NCBI GenBank assembly: GCA_046597055.1
Contig: JBKJLC010000293.1
Span: 32,001 to 96,000, forward strand
Length of the DNA stretch: 64,000 nt
Direction of reading: 5' to 3'
From: Kofleriaceae bacterium
GTDB lineage: Bacteria > Myxococcota_A > Polyangia > Haliangiales > Haliangiaceae
The translations under genes were made by a program, and so were the position numbers. The notes under the pieces are model-generated. The model was not told where the DNA came from. It did no database searches and saw only the letters and a list, made by a program, of their open reading frames with translations. This document shows positions 3,183-43,718 of the stretch, piece by piece; positions within the stretch are counted from its first letter, which is position 1, and each line of letters starts with the position of its first letter.

Positions 3183-4339
3183 CAGACCGCTCCGCGCTCG
3201 CGCTGCTCGCGCTCGATGCTCTCGAACAGCGCGCGGAAGTTGCCGGCGCCGAAGCCGCGGTCGCCCTTGCGCTGGATGATCTCGTAGAAGAACGGCCCGG
3301 CCGCCTTGTCTCCGTAGAGGCCCGACGCCTCCTTCAGGAAGATCTGCAGCATGTACGCGTGGTGGTGATCGCCGTCGATCAGCACCTCGAGCTCGCGCAG
3401 CGTGGCGAGATCCTCGTCGATCACGTCGATGCCGGTCTGCTTGATGCGCTCGGGCAACATCTCGTAGTACGTGCCCGGGGTCGGCATGAACGACACGCCG
3501 CGCTCGCGCAGGCCGCGCACGCCGCCGAGGATGTCCTTGATCGCGAGCGCGACGTGCTGCACGCCGTCGCCGCCGAGCTCCTCGTTGAAGATGTTGATCT
3601 GCGACGACTTGAAGAACGGCCGCGCCGGCTCGTTGTTGGCGAAGCGGACGCCGCTGGCCGGGTCCCACATGACGATCGACTTGAGCCCGGAGCCGTGCTG
3701 ACGCGCCGGCTCGACGTCGCTGGTGTGGAACTCGACCTTCCACATCTGCTCGAGGCCGAGCACGTGCTCCATCCACAGGAGCGCCGGCTTCATGGTCTGG
3801 AAGTTCGAGGTGACGTGGTCGATCGCCTCGAAGCCGAACCGGTTCGACGGGCCGGTCGGCGCGACCGCGATCGCGCCCGGATACAACGACGCGTAGCCGC
3901 GCCGCTCGCGGAAGCGGAACGTGGTGTCGCCGAACGGGGTCGTGATCGAGAACTGGCGCAGGGTGCCGTGATCGTCGGTGTAGGTCTGCACCTCGTCGAT
4001 CGGCGTGCCGCCGCGCTCCTCGAGCAGCGCGAACGCGCGGGCGGCGTCCTCGACCTCGAACACCAGCGTGCCGACCCCGTCGGGGTGGCGACCGAGGAAG
4101 CGGGCGGCCCGACTCGACGCCGGCAGCCCCGGCAGCGGCGACGAGCACACGATCGTGCAGTCGGCCGCGGTGAACGCGACCGAGCGCTGGCGACCGGCCA
4201 GCTCGAGCTCGGGCGACGACCGCCAGCTCTCCGCGAAGTCCATGCGGTCGACGTAGAAGCGGCGGCTCCGGTCGAGGTCGCGGACGTAGTAATGGATACC
4301 TTCGATGCGCTTGATGCCGAGCGGCGCGAGCGGGACCAT
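3182..4339 (-). CDS. hppD: 4-hydroxyphenylpyruvate dioxygenase
   Basis: IDHV, GVQHVAL, FFYEIIQRKGDRGFGAGNFRALFESIE; GGAGG before ATG 4339. Confidence 0.95.
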   Translation of the reverse strand: MVPLAPLGIKRIEGIHYYVRDLDRSRRFYVDRMDFAESWRSSPELELAGRQRSVAFTAADCTIVCSSPLPGLPASSRAARFLGRHPDGVGTLVFEVEDAARAFALLEERGGTPIDEVQTYTDDHGTLRQFSITTPFGDTTFRFRERRGYASLYPGAIAVAPTGPSNRFGFEAIDHVTSNFQTMKPALLWMEHVLGLEQMWKVEFHTSDVEPARQHGSGLKSIVMWDPASGVRFANNEPARPFFKSSQINIFNEELGGDGVQHVALAIKDILGGVRGLRERGVSFMPTPGTYYEMLPERIKQTGIDVIDEDLATLRELEVLIDGDHHHAYMLQIFLKEASGLYGDKAAGPFFYEIIQRKGDRGFGAGNFRALFESIEREQRERGAV

Positions 4340-4358
4340 GGCTTCCTCCGTGGAGACG

Positions 4359-5039
4359 TCAGACCCGGGCGACGACGGCGTCGGGCTGCTGATCGGGGTG
4401 CGCGGCGGGGAACGCCGGGAGCTGGTTGCACGCGGCCTCGATCGCGGCGAGCCGCGCGAAGCCACCGGGGTCGACGCCAAACCGGCGCGCCGAGTAGAGC
4501 TGCGGGATGAGGCAGCAGTCGGCGAGGGACGGCGCGTCGCCGACCGAGAACCGGCCGGCGGTGGGCGCGACCGCGGCCTCGAGCGCGGCCAGGCCCGAGC
4601 GGATGAAGCCCTGGACCCAGACCGTGTCGTCGCCGCCGAGCGCGACCACCGCGCGGGTCGTGGTGAGGTTCTGCAGCGGCTGGATCCCGGAGTTGACGAT
4701 CTCGGCGAGCGCGCGCGCGTGGGCGCGGCGCTCGAGCTCGCGCGGCAGGAGCGGACCGGTACCGGCCGTGGGCCAGCGCTCGTCCAGGTACTCGATGATC
4801 GGCAGCGACTGGCTCAGGAAGTGGACGCGGCCGTCGCCCTCGACGACCTCGAGCGTGGGGACCTGCGCCATCGGGTTGTGGGCGCGGTAGCCGGCGTCGT
4901 GCTGACCGCCGCCGCCGGCGACGCCGCCCTTGACGATGTCGACCGTGACGTAGTCCCAGGCCAGGCCCTTGAGGCCGAGCGCGATCCGCACCCGGTAGCT
5001 CGCCGAGCTGCGCCAGTAGTTGTGGAGGCGGAGGTTCAT
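4359..5039 (-). CDS. maiA: Maleylacetoacetate isomerase (GST zeta)
   Basis: YWRSSASYRVRIAL, NPMAQVP, SGIQPLQNL, AHPDQQPDA. Confidence 0.95.
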   Translation of the reverse strand: MNLRLHNYWRSSASYRVRIALGLKGLAWDYVTVDIVKGGVAGGGGQHDAGYRAHNPMAQVPTLEVVEGDGRVHFLSQSLPIIEYLDERWPTAGTGPLLPRELERRAHARALAEIVNSGIQPLQNLTTTRAVVALGGDDTVWVQGFIRSGLAALEAAVAPTAGRFSVGDAPSLADCCLIPQLYSARRFGVDPGGFARLAAIEAACNQLPAFPAAHPDQQPDAVVARV

Positions 5040-37178: not shown

Positions 37179-37727
37179 TCACGAGGCCAGCTCCCCGTCG
37201 CTCTCGATCTCGCCGGTCCAGTACAAGTAGTCACGCCACGCGTCAGGCATCGACCGCGTGCTGACCCTGATCGTCACCGCCGGCACCCAGGTCGGGCGCG
37301 CCGGCTCCATCCGCAGCTTCATCCCGGCCTCGGCCGGCGTCCGGTTGCCCTTCGATCCGTTGCACGGATAGCAGCAGGTCACGATGTTCTCCCAGGTGGT
37401 CTTGCCGCCGCGGGCACGGGGAACCACGTGGTCGTAGGTCAGCTCCGCCAGCGTGCACTTGGTCGCGCAGTACTGGCACTTGTAGCCGTCACGCGCGTAG
37501 ATGTTCACGCGCGAGAACTTGACGGGCTTGCGGTATCGCCGGAACGCACGGATCAACCGCACGACCGCCGGCACCTTGATGATGAGCGTCACCGCTCGGA
37601 TCTCGGCGTCGTACTCCTCGACCACCTCCACCTTGCCGAGGGTCAGGAGGGTGATCGCCCGCTGCCACGGGATGACCTTGATGGGCTCGTACCCCTGCGA
37701 CAGGAGCAGCGTCGTCGCGTGACTCAT
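37179..37727 (-). CDS. HNH endonuclease inside the tRNA array
   Basis: RDGYKCQYC, TYDHVVPRARGG, WENIVTCCYPCNGSKGN. Confidence 0.93.
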   Translation of the reverse strand: MSHATTLLLSQGYEPIKVIPWQRAITLLTLGKVEVVEEYDAEIRAVTLIIKVPAVVRLIRAFRRYRKPVKFSRVNIYARDGYKCQYCATKCTLAELTYDHVVPRARGGKTTWENIVTCCYPCNGSKGNRTPAEAGMKLRMEPARPTWVPAVTIRVSTRSMPDAWRDYLYWTGEIESDGELAS

Positions 37728-37789
37728 GACGGTCCGTGTTCCTTTCCCCGGTCACTGTCTTTCAGGCGCGCCCCGGTGCCAGCGCGCCA

Positions 37790-37811
37790 TCGGCCCACGA
37801 CGTGTGGGCAA
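37790..37811 (-). promoter_or_regulatory. Ro-site-like bulged-C hairpin upstream of the HNH gene
   Basis: TTGCCCAC-ACGTC-GTGGG[C]CGA. Confidence 0.55.
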
Positions 37812-38057: not shown

Positions 38058-38185
38058 TGGGGTGGGTGGCCTGGATTCGAACCTGGCATCTGCGGCTCCC
38101 TGAGAACCCTCTTCTGACGGCCCGGTGACGGGCAAGCTGACGAGGAGGGGCCATAACCGCCGTCCTGCCACTGGACGACACCCAC
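38058..38185 (-). ncRNA. tRNA-shaped Y-RNA-like element A, CCA encoded
   Basis: Acceptor, D and T arms intact; anticodon loop replaced by ~60 nt containing CTTGCCCG-TCAC-CGGGCCG. Confidence 0.75.
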
Positions 38186-38199
38186 GTACGAAGTAGCAG

Positions 38200-38326
38200 T
38201 GCAGGCAGCTGGACTCGAACCAGCGTCACACGCGTTAACACGATAACCATCCAGCGTCGGCCCGCGACCGGGCGAGGTGAGTACAGGACGGATCCACGTT
38301 GCGCTACCGGGCTGAGCTACACCTGC
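38200..38326 (-). ncRNA. tRNA-shaped Y-RNA-like element B
   Basis: Insert with CTCGCCCG-GTCG-CGGGCCGA...GGATGGTTATCG. Confidence 0.75.
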
Positions 38327-38347
38327 GAAGAAACACAACACGAGTCG

Positions 38348-38472
38348 TGTGGACGGCCGGAGTCGAACCGGCGCGTGCGGTTTGCGACGATAACCGACTT
38401 CGACGGCCCGTGACCGGGCGAGGGTTGTGAAGACGAGATCTTTCCGCCGTCCTACCGTTAGACGACGTCCAC
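38348..38472 (-). ncRNA. tRNA-shaped Y-RNA-like element C
   Basis: Insert with CTCGCCCG-GTCA-CGGGCCG...GGTTATCG. Confidence 0.75.
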
Positions 38473-38477
38473 GTGCG

Positions 38478-38605
38478 TGCAGGTGGCTGGATTCGAACCA
38501 GCGGCCAACGGATTGATAATCGATGACCATCCGACATCGGCCCGTCGCCGGGCGAGGTTGTGAAGGACGGGTTTACGTTGCTCTACCGGACTGAGCTACA
38601 CCTGC
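38478..38605 (-). ncRNA. tRNA-shaped Y-RNA-like element D
   Basis: Insert with CTCGCCCG-GCGA-CGGGCCGA...GGATGGTCATCG. Confidence 0.75.
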
Positions 38606-38620
38606 AAAGAAAAACATGCG

Positions 38621-38692
38621 TCTGGATGACTGGAATCGCACCAGCGGCCTCGTGATCCCCGAACACGCGCCCTGCTCCTGAGCTACACCCAG
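38621..38692 (-). tRNA. tRNA-Pro(GGG)
   Basis: Loop TCGGGGA; C1:G72, A73. Confidence 0.75.
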
Positions 38693-38693
38693 A

Positions 38694-38792
38694 TGGGGCG
38701 GGACTTTGGATTCGAACCATGTAGACCGATAACCATCCATCGTTCGGCCCGTTTCCGGGCAAGGGCACTTTGATAGACGGACTCGTCCCGCC
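38694..38792 (-). ncRNA. Y-RNA-like element E without a D arm
   Basis: GGCGGGAC/GTCCCGCC-CCA stem, GGTTCGAATCC, CTTGCCCG-GAAA-CGGGCCGA...GGTTATCG. Confidence 0.7.
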
Positions 38793-38797
38793 AGAAG

Positions 38798-38867
38798 TCG
38801 CAACGGAAGGACTCGAACCTTCACCGGCGCGGATATGAGCCGCGCGTCCTCGCCCGAGGTCGCTGCG
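38798..38867 (-). tRNA. tRNA-Met/Ile2(CAT), small D loop
   Basis: Stem CGCGG/CCGCG; loop CTCATAT. Confidence 0.72.
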
Positions 38868-39349: not shown

Positions 39350-39422
39350 TATCCCTGGGGGGAATCGAACCCGCCATACCTGGTTTGAGAGACCAGTAGA
39401 CTGACCACTGTCTGACAGGGAC
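39350..39422 (-). tRNA. tRNA-Glu(CTC)
   Basis: Stem CTGGT/ACCAG; loop CTCTCAA. Confidence 0.82.
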
Positions 39423-39472
39423 ATCTTCGCGTGGCGCTTGCGCCCAAGGCGCCTCACGCCACGCGATCTTCG

Positions 39473-39545
39473 AGGGCCCGGCGGGAATCGAACCCGCACC
39501 TCGCAGTTTAACAGACTGCCGCTCAGCCAGTTGAGCTTCGGACCC
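39473..39545 (-). tRNA. tRNA-Asn(GTT)
   Basis: Stem GCAGT/ACTGC; loop CTGTTAA. Confidence 0.85.
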
Positions 39546-39617
39546 AGACACGCCACGGTCGTGAGACCGCGGCGCGTGCGTGTTGAGGGCGACTCTCGTC
39601 GTGGCCTGGGCCGAAGC

Positions 39618-41255
39618 CTAGGCGCGGGCGAAGTCGCTGATCACCGGCGGCGTCGCCGTGTCGAAACCGACCACGTCGAGCATGCCGGCGTCGTTCGGGT
39701 CCGCGATCGTGAACCCGTTCGAGGTCATCCCGACCACCACCAGCTTGGCCGGGATGCCGCGCGCCTGTCGATAGGCGCGCAGGGCCTGGGCCGGGTGCAC
39801 GCTCCCGGCCCAGGTCTCGCTGTCCGTGTACACCACGAAGGTGTCCACATCCACCTTGTGCCGCTGCGCCCAGATCATCGGGAGCGCGCAGTCGGTTCCA
39901 CCCATCGGCAGCTTGGCGACCGCCGCGACCACGTCGTCGAGCCGCTGGCGCGGCGAGATCGACAGGGTCGTGATGCCCGACTCGCCACCGCCGTGCATGC
40001 CGCCGTAGCCACCGCTCGCCGCGGTGAAGCCCACGAACGTGTGGTCACGCTCGGTCGCCGCGGTGATCAGCGCCATCGCCGCGCTGCCGACCCGCGGCGT
40101 CAGGCCGGGCACCCCGGCGATGGTGCCGCACGCCATCGAGCCCGACACGTCGAGCGCGAGCAGCATGCGCTTGCCGGCCGGCTCGACCGCCTTGAACGAG
40201 GCGTAGAACGCACCGTCCAGGGCGTCGATGATCGGCGTCACCGGCGTCCAGGTGCCGCTGCCACGGACGCTCTTGCCACCCTGGTAGGTCAGGAGCGCCG
40301 CCAGGACCGCGACCGGGTGGACGCGGGCCTTGGCGATCCGGTTCGCATCACCCAGCCGCGCGACCACGGTGTTGGTCGCGTTGGCACCCGGCGCGAGCAA
40401 GCCCGCACGGGTCATCGTGGCCAGGTTCCGGATCATCGCCGTCATGGGCATGTCGACCAGCAGCGCGTCCCACACGCCGGCGTCGTTCAGCCAGCGCGTC
40501 GGCAGCGTCTCGCGCGGCAGCCGGAACTCGCGCACCAGCGCCGCCACCTCGGCCGCAGTACCGGCCGCCTTCACCGCCTCCATGCCGATCAGCAACCGCA
40601 GCGCCGGGTCGGCGCTCGCGCCATCCGGCACGGTTCCCTTGGTCACCCACGAGAACAGCCGATCGTGCGATGGCGACGCGGCGCGCGGGTGCGCGAGCCG
40701 CAGCAGGTCTCGGTTCGACCAGCCGTCCCGCTGCTGGTACTTCACCAGCTGCAGCGCGAGGTCGGCCGCCGGCTTGTCGTTGAACCAGCCGGCCACCGCC
40801 TTGCGCATGCCACGGCCCCAGCCGCCGAAGCCCTGCGCGTACTCCGCGAAGTGCATGAGGTGAGTGCCGATGCGGCAGACCGTCGGCAGGGCAGCGTAGG
40901 CGCTCTTGCGAGTCGCCTCGTCGCCGAGCTTGGCGGCCAGCGCCAGGGCGAAGATCGCCGGGTCGTTCTTGGGCGCCCGACCCGCCTGCGAGATCTCGGC
41001 GATCCGCGCGACCGTGCGCGGACCGTCGGCTGCCACGCAGCGGACCACCGTCTGGGCAGTCTCGAGCGTCAGCTTCTGCTCGGAGATGTAGTAGGTGCCG
41101 CCCTCGCTACCCAGGATGAGGAAGCGATCGAGCCGCGCCCAGTCGTCGACCGGCCAGGCGAAGCCCCCGGCCAGGTTCGGCACCTGCGCCGTACCCGGGA
41201 TCGGCTGCGACTGCGGCGTCGCCTGCGTCGAGAAGAACTTGGTGAACTTGAACAC
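39618..41255 (-). CDS. rsr: Ro60 / TROVE-domain RNA-binding protein
   Basis: TPQSQPIPG, RLDRFLILGSEGGTYY, KYQQRDGW, AMIRNLATMT, vWA DVSGSM, GGTDCALP, TDSETW; GTG start with GGAGG. Confidence 0.96.
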   Translation of the reverse strand: MFKFTKFFSTQATPQSQPIPGTAQVPNLAGGFAWPVDDWARLDRFLILGSEGGTYYISEQKLTLETAQTVVRCVAADGPRTVARIAEISQAGRAPKNDPAIFALALAAKLGDEATRKSAYAALPTVCRIGTHLMHFAEYAQGFGGWGRGMRKAVAGWFNDKPAADLALQLVKYQQRDGWSNRDLLRLAHPRAASPSHDRLFSWVTKGTVPDGASADPALRLLIGMEAVKAAGTAAEVAALVREFRLPRETLPTRWLNDAGVWDALLVDMPMTAMIRNLATMTRAGLLAPGANATNTVVARLGDANRIAKARVHPVAVLAALLTYQGGKSVRGSGTWTPVTPIIDALDGAFYASFKAVEPAGKRMLLALDVSGSMACGTIAGVPGLTPRVGSAAMALITAATERDHTFVGFTAASGGYGGMHGGGESGITTLSISPRQRLDDVVAAVAKLPMGGTDCALPMIWAQRHKVDVDTFVVYTDSETWAGSVHPAQALRAYRQARGIPAKLVVVGMTSNGFTIADPNDAGMLDVVGFDTATPPVISDFARA

Positions 41256-41261
41256 GGCACG

Positions 41262-41322
41262 CCTCCGGCCCACGCGGTGGGCACTGCTGGTTGGGCTCGG
41301 CCACGCACCATGCGCGGCGAGC
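41262..41322 (-). promoter_or_regulatory. Two Ro-site-like hairpins in the rsr leader, one abutting the SD
   Basis: GCTCGCCGCGCA-TGG-TGCGTGG[C]CGAGC and TGCCCAC-CGC-GTGGG[C]CG-GAGG. Confidence 0.6.
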
Positions 41323-41417
41323 GAGATCTGTAATGAGGAATCGCTTCGCGAAGCGCTCGATGCCTCCCGGCGGCATCGCCGCCGCACCACCGGAGGTGGC
41401 GGACTGGCGAGTCTTCG

Positions 41418-41489
41418 AGCCGGTCGGAGGAATCGAACCTCGTTGGGTCGCTTACGGAACGACTGCTCGCCCAGCGAGCTACGACCGGC
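41418..41489 (-). tRNA. tRNA-Thr(CGT)
   Basis: Loop TCCGTAA; GGTTCGATTCC. Confidence 0.75.
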
Positions 41490-41497
41490 GGAAACTG

Positions 41498-41556
41498 GCG
41501 GACAAGTGGCACTCGTGGGGGTCTGTTATCAGGAGAACCCACGAGCATCGGCCCGC
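41498..41556 (-). ncRNA. Minimal (~59 nt) Y-RNA-like stem
   Basis: GCGGG[C]CGA-T-GCTCGTGGG...CCCACGAGT-GCCAC-TTGTCCGC. Confidence 0.7.
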
Positions 41557-41560
41557 GCAG

Positions 41561-41631
41561 AGCGGCGCGCGGGAGTTGCACCCGCACGGTCAGGGTGGAG
41601 GCCTGGCATGCTGCTGTTACATCAGCGCCGC
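41561..41631 (-). tRNA. tRNA-Gly(TCC)
   Basis: Loop CCTCCAC; U73. Confidence 0.78.
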
Positions 41632-41641
41632 GACACGAAAG

Positions 41642-41712
41642 AGCAGGTGGTGGGAATCGAACCCGCGATCCCGGCATGGCGTACCGGTGTGTCACCACAA
41701 CACTTCACCTGC
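41642..41712 (-). tRNA. tRNA-Gly(GCC)
   Basis: Loop ACGCCAT; U73. Confidence 0.75.
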
Positions 41713-41795
41713 GGCGGTGTGCCTCGAGTGTCCTCGGGGCCACCTGACGGTCGTCGGCGCGCTCGGCAGGGCTTCGCGCGTCGACGAACGCATCG

Positions 41796-41870
41796 TGGGT
41801 CGGGCGGGAATCGAACCCGCGTCGGGGCAGATTAAGAATCTGCTGCAAAGCCAGCGTTTGCTACCGACCC
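41796..41870 (-). tRNA. tRNA-Lys(CTT)
   Basis: Stem GCAGA/TCTGC; loop TTCTTAA. Confidence 0.85.
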
Positions 41871-41899
41871 AGTTGCCGCGCCAGGCGCGGCGAGTCTCG

Positions 41900-41972
41900 T
41901 CCCACCCCCTGGAATCGAACCAGGACCTCTCGGGCTTCAGCCAAGCGCGCAGACCACATGCGCCAGGGTGGG
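41900..41972 (-). tRNA. tRNA-Phe(GAA)
   Basis: Loop CTGAAGC. Confidence 0.8.
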
Positions 41973-42063
41973 GTTGTGCGGTCGCCGCCGACCGCTGGGG
42001 AGCGGGTGACGACGACCTTCCGAAATGGGCGCCCGCGCTACCGGGCGCCCCATCATTCGTCTC

Positions 42064-42080
42064 TTCGGTTGTCAGAGATC
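42064..42080 (-). promoter_or_regulatory. Possible boxA-like antitermination element
   Basis: GATCTCTGACAACCGAA resembles rrn leader boxA-type sequences. Confidence 0.35.
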
Positions 42081-42150
42081 CACCCCGCGCGTCCGTCGGC
42101 CCGTGCGGGCAGACCTCGAGCGGGGCCGCGCCGTTTCATGGGCGCAGCAG

Positions 42151-42224
42151 TACCGGGCCCAGGATTCGAACCTGGATCTGTACGGTTCAGAGCCGTCCGT
42201 CGTGCCGAGTTGGACCAGCCCGGT
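42151..42224 (-). tRNA. tRNA-Gln(CTG)
   Basis: Loop CTCTGAA; GGTTCGAATCC. Confidence 0.78.
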
Positions 42225-42276
42225 GCGTGTCAGTAAGTGCGTCGATCGCCAGTCCCATGACTGACAACGATCGCAG

Positions 42277-42361
42277 TGGGGCGCCCAGGTTTTGAACCTG
42301 GCGGGTCGCGTGCGACGGCGGCTTTACAGGCCGCCCCGTCTCCATAGCGGTCTATCGCCCC
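42277..42361 (-). tRNA. tRNA-Tyr(GTA), first gene of the array
   Basis: Loop CTGTAAA; long variable arm; A73. Confidence 0.82.
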
Positions 42362-42384
42362 GAGGGTGCTGCCGGAACGGCAAC

Positions 42385-42420
42385 GAGAAAGGGCCACCTG
42401 GGTTCGTCCCGGGTGGCCCT
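42385..42420 (-). terminator. Terminator/attenuator-like hairpin upstream of the array
   Basis: AGGGCCACCCGGG-ACGAA-CCCAGGTGGCCCT followed by TTCTC (short U tract). Confidence 0.55.
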
Positions 42421-42450
42421 GTTCACGGAGCTTGAGAGAGTGCTCTCGAG

Positions 42451-42645
42451 CTAGGTGGGAGGGGCCCCCCTGGGATCCTGACCGCCGCGGACGGCGCGAT
42501 TCGCGAGACCGAAGATCTCTTCGATCTTCAGGCACTTGGCGGCGAAGCTGGACGTCAGACACCAGCTCAACTGCGCGGAAACGCGCCCTTGCGGCGAGCC
42601 AGATGGCATCGCATAGGCAAGGTGATGGAGCGAGGTGGTGTTCAT
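42451..42645 (-). CDS. Putative 64-aa leader peptide ending ...DPRGAPPT
   Basis: ATG 42645; stop ~30 nt before the hairpin; no homology evidence. Confidence 0.4.
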   Translation of the reverse strand: MNTTSLHHLAYAMPSGSPQGRVSAQLSWCLTSSFAAKCLKIEEIFGLANRAVRGGQDPRGAPPT

Positions 42646-42778
42646 GGCGGGTGCTTCGACGTCCGAGGTTTCGTTTGGTTCTGCTTTTTTCCGTCCCGAA
42701 CCGGTGCCAGCCTGTGCCGCCCTTCCGTCCGGGTCCCCTGCGATCCGCTCAGTGCAGCAGTCGCGGGTTGATGATCTG

Positions 42779-42807
42779 TGCTTAAAGGGTCTGGCCTCCG
42801 AAGTCAA
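42779..42807 (-). promoter_or_regulatory. Possible sigma70-type promoter for the array
   Basis: TTGACT-N17-TAAGCA in a locally AT-rich tract; weak -10. Confidence 0.3.
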
Positions 42808-42941
42808 ACTCCAATCGAAATTATCTCAGAACTAACAGTCACCATTCGAGTTTCGTCGTCGAGGTCGTCGTCGCAACCGTCGGTGTGCGGCCGTGTCCAC
42901 CGGACATGAGCGTGAGCGGCACGAATGGCACGAACGGTTCG

Positions 42942-43718
42942 ATGGTAGCCACGGAGAGCTCGGTTCTGGTGTCGTTGCGGGAGCTTCGAGAGATCGAGGA
43001 CCGCCGGCTGGTCGAGCGGAAGGAGGCGGCAACCGCCCGCGAGGTGGCCCAGACCCGGGCCTGGGAGGAGGCGGTGGCGCGGCGCGCGCGCGAGCGGACC
43101 GAGCGCGAGGCGGCCGAGGCGGCCGAGGCAGCGCGGTGCGCGGCCGCGCAGGAGCACGCGGCGCGCGCCGACGCCCTCCGGCTCGCGGCGGTCGAGGCGC
43201 AGGCGCGGGCCGAGGCCATGGTCCGGATCGAGGTCGAGCGCGCCAGCCTGGAAGTGGCGCTGCGCCGCGCGGAGCTCGAGCGGCGGCGTCCCCGCTGGCT
43301 CATGACGATCACCGCGGGCATGGCCGCGGTGGCGCTCGCGGTGGGATGGCTGGCGGTCGAGGCGCAGGACGCCGCCCGCGCGCAGCAGCGCGCCGCCGCC
43401 CGCGCGCAGGCCGAAGCCGCGAGCTCGCGGCAGGAGCTCGCGCGCCGGGTCGCGCAGGCCGACGTGCTGGGGCGCAAGATCGCGGACGCGCGGGCCGCGC
43501 TCGAGGCAGAGCGGCGGCGGGTCGAGCGCGCGAAGTCGCAGGCGCAGGCCGAGTGGAACCGTGTCCATGGCGGCAGTCGCCCCAAGCCCGGCAGTGGCAA
43601 GGGTGGCGCCGGCACTGGCAAGGGCGGTCGCGGGAAAGGCAATGGCAGTGGTGGCGGCGTGACTGACAGTCCCCCGGCCGGCGCGGTCAAGGTCTGTACG
43701 GACGGTGTCTTCTGCTGA
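42942..43718 (+). CDS. Coiled-coil membrane protein, hypothetical
   Basis: ESSVLVSLRELREIE, E/R/A-rich coil, one TM, Gly-rich tail. Confidence 0.7.
   Translation: MVATESSVLVSLRELREIEDRRLVERKEAATAREVAQTRAWEEAVARRARERTEREAAEAAEAARCAAAQEHAARADALRLAAVEAQARAEAMVRIEVERASLEVALRRAELERRRPRWLMTITAGMAAVALAVGWLAVEAQDAARAQQRAAARAQAEAASSRQELARRVAQADVLGRKIADARAALEAERRRVERAKSQAQAEWNRVHGGSRPKPGSGKGGAGTGKGGRGKGNGSGGGVTDSPPAGAVKVCTDGVFC

Follow-up and report, generated by a model that had tools for sequence, protein, structure and literature searches.

A circularly permuted Ro60-binding hairpin at the rsr ribosome-binding site is a candidate operator for autogenous control

Does the bacterial Ro60 protein, Rsr, adjust its own synthesis through a hairpin that resembles its RNA ligand? 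The question is raised by a 64,000-nucleotide stretch of DNA from a Kofleriaceae bacterium (hereafter the window), in which rsr lies in an array of 25 called tRNA genes and an HNH endonuclease gene. The initial annotation had drawn two hairpins, here HP1 and HP2, in the rsr leader and proposed that Rsr not occupied by Y RNA binds its own leader and represses translation. To our knowledge, Ro60 has been described as a ring-shaped protein of RNA surveillance and an autoantigen, not as a translation regulator. Among the full texts searched and in Rfam, no account was found of Rsr binding its own leader. The relevant features of the window are as follows.

37179..37727, minus strand: HNH endonuclease gene (182 aa), a candidate second Rsr target
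37790..37811, minus strand: Ro hairpin in the HNH leader, 65 nt before the ATG
38118..38762, minus strand: five permuted Ro hairpins within tRNA-like bodies (bulges at 38746, 38539, 38405, 38259 and 38119)
39618..41255, minus strand: rsr (Ro60), 545 aa, with Pfam TROVE and vWA_Ro60
41262..41266, minus strand: GGAGG, Shine-Dalgarno of rsr, 6 nt before the GTG at 41255-41253, with which the relatives' starts align
41266..41283, minus strand: HP2, a permuted Ro-binding helix and the conserved candidate operator
41295..41322, minus strand: HP1, 12 bp with bulged C41299 (or C41300), a possible second, lineage-specific Ro site
41417..41489, minus strand: tRNA-Thr(CGU)-like gene, the last stable RNA ahead of the rsr leader; relatives have a similar element before rsr
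41498..41556, minus strand: short Y RNA-like hairpin in canonical order (GGGC[C]GA first, UUGUCCGC last), z -3.3 for 41495-41560

The best PDB matches of the Rsr encoded in the window are human Ro60, Xenopus Ro60 and D. radiodurans Rsr. The protein keeps the KY..R..W...D.LR..H segment, the His of which aligns with Xenopus His187, and the H187S mutation of Ro60 abolishes Y RNA binding (PMC11277228). A cognate Ro60 with a Y RNA-contacting surface is encoded near HP2. The segment is found in 103 of the 107 Rsr proteins whose leaders bear the motif described below, and also in 80 of the 101 without it. If the true rsr start were further upstream, the hairpins would belong to a longer open reading frame, a reservation that the initial annotation itself had voiced. 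The leader is included in 29 of the 30 relative loci, and the aligned start codon is ATG in 26 and GTG in 3. These aligned starts fix the GTG of rsr, so HP1 and HP2 are non-coding and the longer frame was ruled out. A promoter and terminator scan of 39400-43000 found no sigma-70 site, and Rfam gave no match over 41262-41322 at the gathering score or at E values up to 10. Four sequencing runs, each represented by a small share, yielded fragmentary contigs only. Ahead of the tRNA array lies a 64-codon open reading frame (42451-42645, minus strand) that uses 40 different sense codons; after it comes a strong hairpin (about 42390-42421, minus strand) ending in a short run of U. The frame is retained in the closest relative at 42% identity and resembles a leader-peptide attenuator.

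HP1 folds as it had been drawn, a 12-bp stem with a single bulged C: four outer pairs, the bulge, eight inner pairs and a UGG loop (z -3.4 for the 33 nt around HP1; pair probability 0.93 in 41345-41225). HP2 consists of the wobble U41283.G41266, the bulged C41267 and a 6-bp stem (G41282-C41277 with G41273-C41268) around a CGC loop, and the pair beyond the U.G is a G/G mismatch. The annotated overlap agrees with the coordinates, in that HP2 shares the first G of GGAGG (41266-41262), 6 nt before the GTG. The folding z of HP2 is about 0, and its stem probability ranges from 0.3 to 1.0 depending on the segment folded. HP2 alone leaves most of the Shine-Dalgarno unpaired, other folds compete with it, and one alternative fold of the leader pairs the spacer and the Shine-Dalgarno.

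Then, could such hairpins simply be chance products of GC-rich DNA? Of the 2909 predicted leaders of this GC-rich genome, 734 (25%) contain a bulged-C hairpin by a loose definition and 48 by the strict one. The loose descriptor was dropped, since 112/208 rsr leaders against 734/2909 control leaders is not discriminating. Neither hairpin, taken singly, stands above chance. HP2 rises above it because of conservation and covariation, both of which HP1 lacks. In the closest relative (L002, 88% protein identity), 20 of the 21 aligned HP1 bases are shared, both Cs are paired and the bulged-C register is gone. The Ro-site form of HP1 is seen only in this genome, and its bulge may still be due to chance. 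HP1 was also rejected as the main site by a wider count, because second hairpins at -35 to -130 occur in 14/207 leaders versus 4.5 by shuffling, several of them apparently inside Y-like RNAs. The initial annotation had placed HP1 first and described HP2 as the weaker hairpin; the comparison reverses this order.

For the comparison, rsr loci were drawn from the family, the phylum, four other phyla, named genomes, IMG/VR and eight annotated phage or plasmid records, and 208 leaders were kept after dropping duplicates and 21 loci (cut, below 30% identity, or with the start not found). Leader starts were chosen heuristically, and a few are evidently misplaced. One row of the leader counts (L023) comes from the unpublished genome G081, and the loci may include DNA of G076; no conclusion hangs on either. 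The motif was fixed from close kin as the core GGGCCG with four pairs and a bulge at most 34 nt from the start. The conserved element is a Ro60-binding helix in circular permutation, YGYCC-loop-GGGC[C]G.

Among the relative loci, 28 of 29 have GGGCCG(G/A)A ahead of the Shine-Dalgarno. The motif is present in 55 of the 66 close-kin rsr leaders, where dinucleotide shuffling predicts 1.07, and in 44 of the 142 held-out leaders, where it predicts about 1.0, counts that overstate independence because the genomes are kin. The held-out cases are distributed over Deinococcota (24/29), Armatimonadota (7/29), other named genomes (6/26), other Myxococcota (4/14), Actinomycetota (1/2), IMG/VR (1/32), Chloroflexota (0/2) and the annotated phage and plasmid records (1/8, Streptomyces phage TunaTartare). 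On the antisense strand the motif occurs in 0/208 leaders, and in rsr coding windows its frequency is 0-4%. A search upstream of rsr homologues, which the initial annotation had suggested as a check, has borne out HP2. Chance as the source of the hairpins, for which the near-zero z of HP2 and the abundance of the loose form in this genome would speak, is refuted for HP2 by the held-out excess together with the covariation given below, and we rate its probability as next to negligible.

When GAGCCG is also allowed, 107 of the 208 leaders are positive. The 101 leaders without the motif include 26/32 from IMG/VR, 7/8 of the annotated phage and plasmid records and 5/5 of the Verrucomicrobiota-type loci. 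Four leaders missed by the descriptor (L181, L187, L247 and L252) have GGGUCG(A) between the Shine-Dalgarno and the AUG, closer to the GNCGAA of YrlA; given these, the operator may be more widespread than counted. The search was also run in reverse, with the motif plus AGGAG alone, and returned at least 330 matches (210 viral and at least 120 metagenomic). Among the matches listed, 17 of 330 lie directly before rsr (14 distinct N-termini) and 313 elsewhere, the other downstream proteins being sorted only as Rsr or HNH; at least 3 of the 17 loci were the source of the GAGC variant. Again among the matches listed, all 17 rsr cases fall within the 131 that form a fifth pair and none within the 199 that do not.

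Is the stem itself under selection? Pairing was examined in 75 upstream-type cases and along a tree built from 98 Rsr proteins, with only the four core pairs setting the register. A fifth pair is present in 68 of the 75, against a shuffle mean of 46.7 and a maximum of 54; on the tree it changes 25 times, 17 of these changes being two-sided, from pair to pair. The sixth pair forms in 55 of 75 (shuffle mean 36, maximum 47), with 31 changes, of which 12 are two-sided and 17 lead to a non-pair. Within the core, C-G changed to U-A three times on the tree. The loops vary from 3 to 22 nt and G.U wobbles are frequent, which argues against a DNA operator. It could be supposed that an element so short and GC-rich has another reader, namely a different RNA-binding protein, a nuclease or a regulator that binds the inverted repeat as DNA. 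The loop lengths, the wobbles and the strand specificity point to RNA, however, and the element accompanies rsr across phyla and in phages and is absent from the HNH leaders of genomes where rsr was not found (one exception in ten, discussed below), so that we consider another reader very improbable.

The placement of the motif takes two forms. In 81 of the 107 positive leaders it lies just 5' of the Shine-Dalgarno or runs into it, with the bulge at a median of -14 and, in 73 of them, no more than 20 nt from the start. In the other 26, mainly from Deinococcota, the Shine-Dalgarno is in the loop or the 3' arm, GGGC[C]G stands between the Shine-Dalgarno and the AUG, and only the 4-5 bp core is paired. 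Parsimony on a midpoint-rooted Rsr tree gives three origins for the second form, and the estimate is a weak one. An element that shifts with respect to the Shine-Dalgarno but stays on the initiation region would appear to behave like an operator. As expected of an autogenous operator, HP2 lies in the initiation region of the mRNA for the protein concerned, and it is conserved with covariation before homologous genes.

How closely does the element match what Ro60 is known to bind? In D. radiodurans, Rsr protects G7, G8, C9, G11 and A12 of Yrn1 and stabilises that stem, and YrlA RNAs carry GNCGAA (PMC4201824). The Ro60-binding helix takes the form GGUCCGA in animals, the forms of Yrn1 and Yrn2 in D. 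radiodurans, and GNCGAAN0-1G in YrlA and YrlB (PMC4201824). HP2 has a strand that matches the Yrn1 footprint, and its partner, in permuted order, with the 3' strand first and the two closed by a loop. The single bulged C next to a G-C pair is present in HP2 and in the motif class, and the Ro-site strand GGCCG is present in 107/107 by definition. The final A is present in part: the base after CCG is G in 50/107, including the window, and A, the Ro consensus, in 47/107, with the next base mostly A. Changes of single bases in CGAA cost a phage Ro60 3-4 fold (PMC12135203), and G instead of the consensus A may lower affinity.

The window also holds likely cognate Y-like RNAs in the five permuted hairpins at 38118..38762. 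Their YrlA matches are weak, below the gathering score. Over 38062-38800 (minus strand), several tRNA-bodied RNAs have the Ro hairpin where the anticodon arm region would be expected. HP2 mimics the primary target in that its sequence and structure agree both with the Y-like RNAs of the locus and with the published Yrn1 footprint. Where the leader variant was compared with the local Y RNA variant (all but three of 19 loci covered), the two agree in the phage locus L245 and disagree in L271 and L278. Other Ro sites occur in the flanks of 77/99 motif-bearing and 45/89 motif-less loci; the latter figure implies many loci with Y-like RNAs and no operator.

The abundance of such RNAs raises the thought that the leader hairpins are left over from permuted Y-like RNA genes, as relics or fragments, or are tiny processed Y RNAs, with no translational effect. 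Five copies reside in the Y-like RNAs of the array and such RNAs often flank rsr, so copies could spread, and HP1 may be of this kind. HP2, on the other hand, is without tRNA arms and shares Shine-Dalgarno bases, its position is kept across phyla and phages, the covariation persists, and the Deinococcota form encloses the Shine-Dalgarno. Compared with a Y RNA gene, an RNA of 80-130 nt with paired ends and a large loop, HP2 is an 18-nt permuted hairpin, and it has neither an Rfam match nor tRNA-like T and D arms. We think a relic improbable.

At locus L224, the Rsr is that of PDB 2NVO at 514 of 515 residues, and the candidate operator wraps the rsr Shine-Dalgarno. Two upstream RNAs (146 and 145 nt) carry the permuted hairpin, and their ends, length and loops (GCUG, and a GAU around position 71) agree with those of RNAs a and b of D. 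radiodurans, a match that rests on the garbled text of Fig. S3 (PMC4201824). RNAs a and b bind Rsr 'less strongly' than Yrn1 (PMC4201824), which is the affinity order that autogenous control needs. By this match, the permuted hairpin would be present in RNAs that bind Rsr, its role in that binding being putative, and the match suggests the hairpin as the reason why they bind. Altogether, three tRNA-bodied RNAs with a permuted Ro hairpin lie at about 3890-4400 (minus strand) of this locus, two of them matching RNAs a and b. The gene between these RNAs and rsr we take to be NADAR-like.

Is rsr the only gene with such a leader? The HNH gene of the array also has a Ro hairpin, which the initial annotation had not listed. 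A second stem (37788-37765) follows it, and the CCGG of its loop could pair with the CCGG at 37751-37748 beside the Shine-Dalgarno. A pseudoknot of this kind (37748-37788) would be a possible link between the Ro hairpin and the HNH initiation site; CCGG is self-complementary and so cannot covary. In the genus (30 of 33 matches covered), the hairpin is present before 16/16 array HNH orthologues and 1/14 unlinked HNH paralogues. It lies on the Shine-Dalgarno in 4 of the 16 leaders and 61-74 nt upstream in 12, where the second stem follows. The family survey covered 30 of 33, 30 of 57 and 30 of 54 matches, an array being at least 2 tRNAs nearby. Among the matches listed, array HNH genes have the hairpin in 27/34 cases in rsr-positive genomes versus 1/10 without rsr, and other HNH genes in 2/25 versus 0/20. 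A TROVE family search found nothing in the 10 rsr-less genomes (74-98% complete). The single exception (L380, 2297-2693) has short rsr-like fragments upstream, at the expected place in the tRNA array, and rsr has probably decayed or been recently lost in that genome. In these genomes, which are kin and so not independent, the hairpin goes with rsr and with neither the HNH gene nor the array. The unlinked HNH paralogue (leaders L300-L313) is preceded by a conserved palindrome-like TTGAAA-N4-TTTCAA, probably a DNA operator.

A DUF7873 gene (contig C79) was considered as a third target and rejected, the strong hairpin being present only here and in the closest genome and a looser rule giving 6/41 leaders. 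In that contig (L318, 1599-1712 and 2500-2730), the Ro-type hairpin lies 93 nt before the DUF7873 gene, and a structured-looking sequence that ends in a T-arm and has no Rfam match comes after it; several genus members have an unpaired GYGGGCCG before the gene. The motif is absent from the 200 nt before four rtcB matches in this genome, the start codons of which were not located. In genome G986, the Deinococcus-type operator has two matches, one at rsr and the other inside a gene on the opposite strand. In one case (L100, 4206-5114), a gene of the RlaP family of RNA repair nucleotidyltransferases lies downstream of rsr, and a Ro-like hairpin enters its Shine-Dalgarno.

From these observations we infer binding by Rsr, repression through binding, and competition by Y RNAs. 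On the comparative evidence it is very likely that Rsr binds HP2, and it is quite likely, given such binding, that repression would follow. HP2 is probably a translational operator, at which Rsr free of Y RNA would block initiation. In the proposed mechanism, the operon would yield Y RNAs and Y-like RNAs together with the rsr mRNA. Y RNAs in excess would hold Rsr, and the mRNA would be translated. Spare Rsr would bind HP2, stabilise the hairpin and cover the Shine-Dalgarno region, and initiation would stop, so that the level of Rsr would be kept matched to that of the Y RNAs. Since the hairpin unaided would keep little of the Shine-Dalgarno paired, the protein would be needed for repression. 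The central idea of the initial annotation, a Ro-site mimic at the rsr ribosome-binding site for autogenous control, is well supported by the comparison, and its emphasis on HP1 has been given up.

Rsr might also bind the hairpin with a different outcome, an effect on mRNA stability or processing or an activation, for instance through protection of the 5' end of the rsr mRNA after tRNA excision or relief of a fold that hides the Shine-Dalgarno. Yrn2 needs Rsr for stable accumulation (PMC4201824), a tRNA-like gene precedes the leader in many relatives, the alternative fold in the window pairs the spacer and the Shine-Dalgarno, and 12/16 HNH leaders have the hairpin 61-74 nt upstream. This is nevertheless unlikely in our judgment, as 26/107 leaders have the bound strand between the Shine-Dalgarno and the AUG, where a bound 60-kDa ring would be hardly compatible with initiation, and in 73 of the remaining 81 the bulge is no more than 20 nt from the start.

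Repression at the initiation site can be extended, tentatively, to a small RNA-repair regulon of rsr and the array HNH gene. Rsr might be its repressor and the Y RNAs, including the tRNA-bodied ones, the titrating antagonists. The surfaces of Ro60 for Y RNA and for misfolded RNA overlap (PMC4201824), so damaged RNA could also pull Rsr off its operators. Ro60 would then be a sensor that licenses the nuclease only when RNA partners or substrates are abundant. We see this wider scheme as a possibility, not as the expected outcome.

What would autogenous control mean, if true? Ro60 would acquire a third job and the Y RNAs the role of titrator, and it would be explained how bacteria and phages match Rsr to Y RNAs. 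Free and Y-RNA-bound Rsr differ in activity (PMC4201824). Deletions of rsr or of Y RNA genes may shift the levels of Rsr and the nuclease as a side effect. The hairpin, of about 20 nt, is a candidate minimal Ro60 ligand. Strains of the D. radiodurans type suit a direct test, their Rsr having been purified and solved (2NVO) and the operator enclosing the Shine-Dalgarno.

The proposed operator can be compared with several known systems. With the Ro helix of Y RNAs it shares the GGCCG(A/G) strand, a bulged C between G-C and Y.G pairs, and a same-strand rsr nearby. It differs in its permuted strands, small loop and length of 18-35 nt within an mRNA leader; it overlaps a ribosome-binding site instead of being a separate RNA, and often has G for the final A. 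RNAs a and b of D. radiodurans share the permuted hairpin by the match made here, but they are tRNA-like RNAs of about 145 nt (PMC4201824), whereas the operator is a bare hairpin on an mRNA. Long tRNA arrays (L-arrays) are induced by translational stress and have linked HNH and rtcB genes; the control described for them is transcriptional and cyanobacterial, and 'Y RNA' and 'TROVE' are absent from the main text of that paper (PMC8421152). The window resembles them in its 25 called tRNA genes and the HNH gene in the array. CsrA/RsmA is a repressor that acts on hairpins at Shine-Dalgarno regions and is titrated by multi-site small RNAs of the CsrB type. The protein and the site are unrelated here, the Rsr regulon looks like one or two genes, and titration by Y RNA is only proposed. 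In the autogenous operators of ribosomal proteins (S15/rpsO, L10, L25 and L31), the mRNA for a protein carries, at its initiation region, a mimic of that protein's primary RNA target, and excess protein represses. The rsr leader appears to follow the same logic of an own-mRNA mimic at the initiation region, with the differences that the protein is an RNA-surveillance ring, that its target is a small non-coding RNA, that the mimic is circularly permuted, and that a nuclease gene appears to share the Rsr operator.
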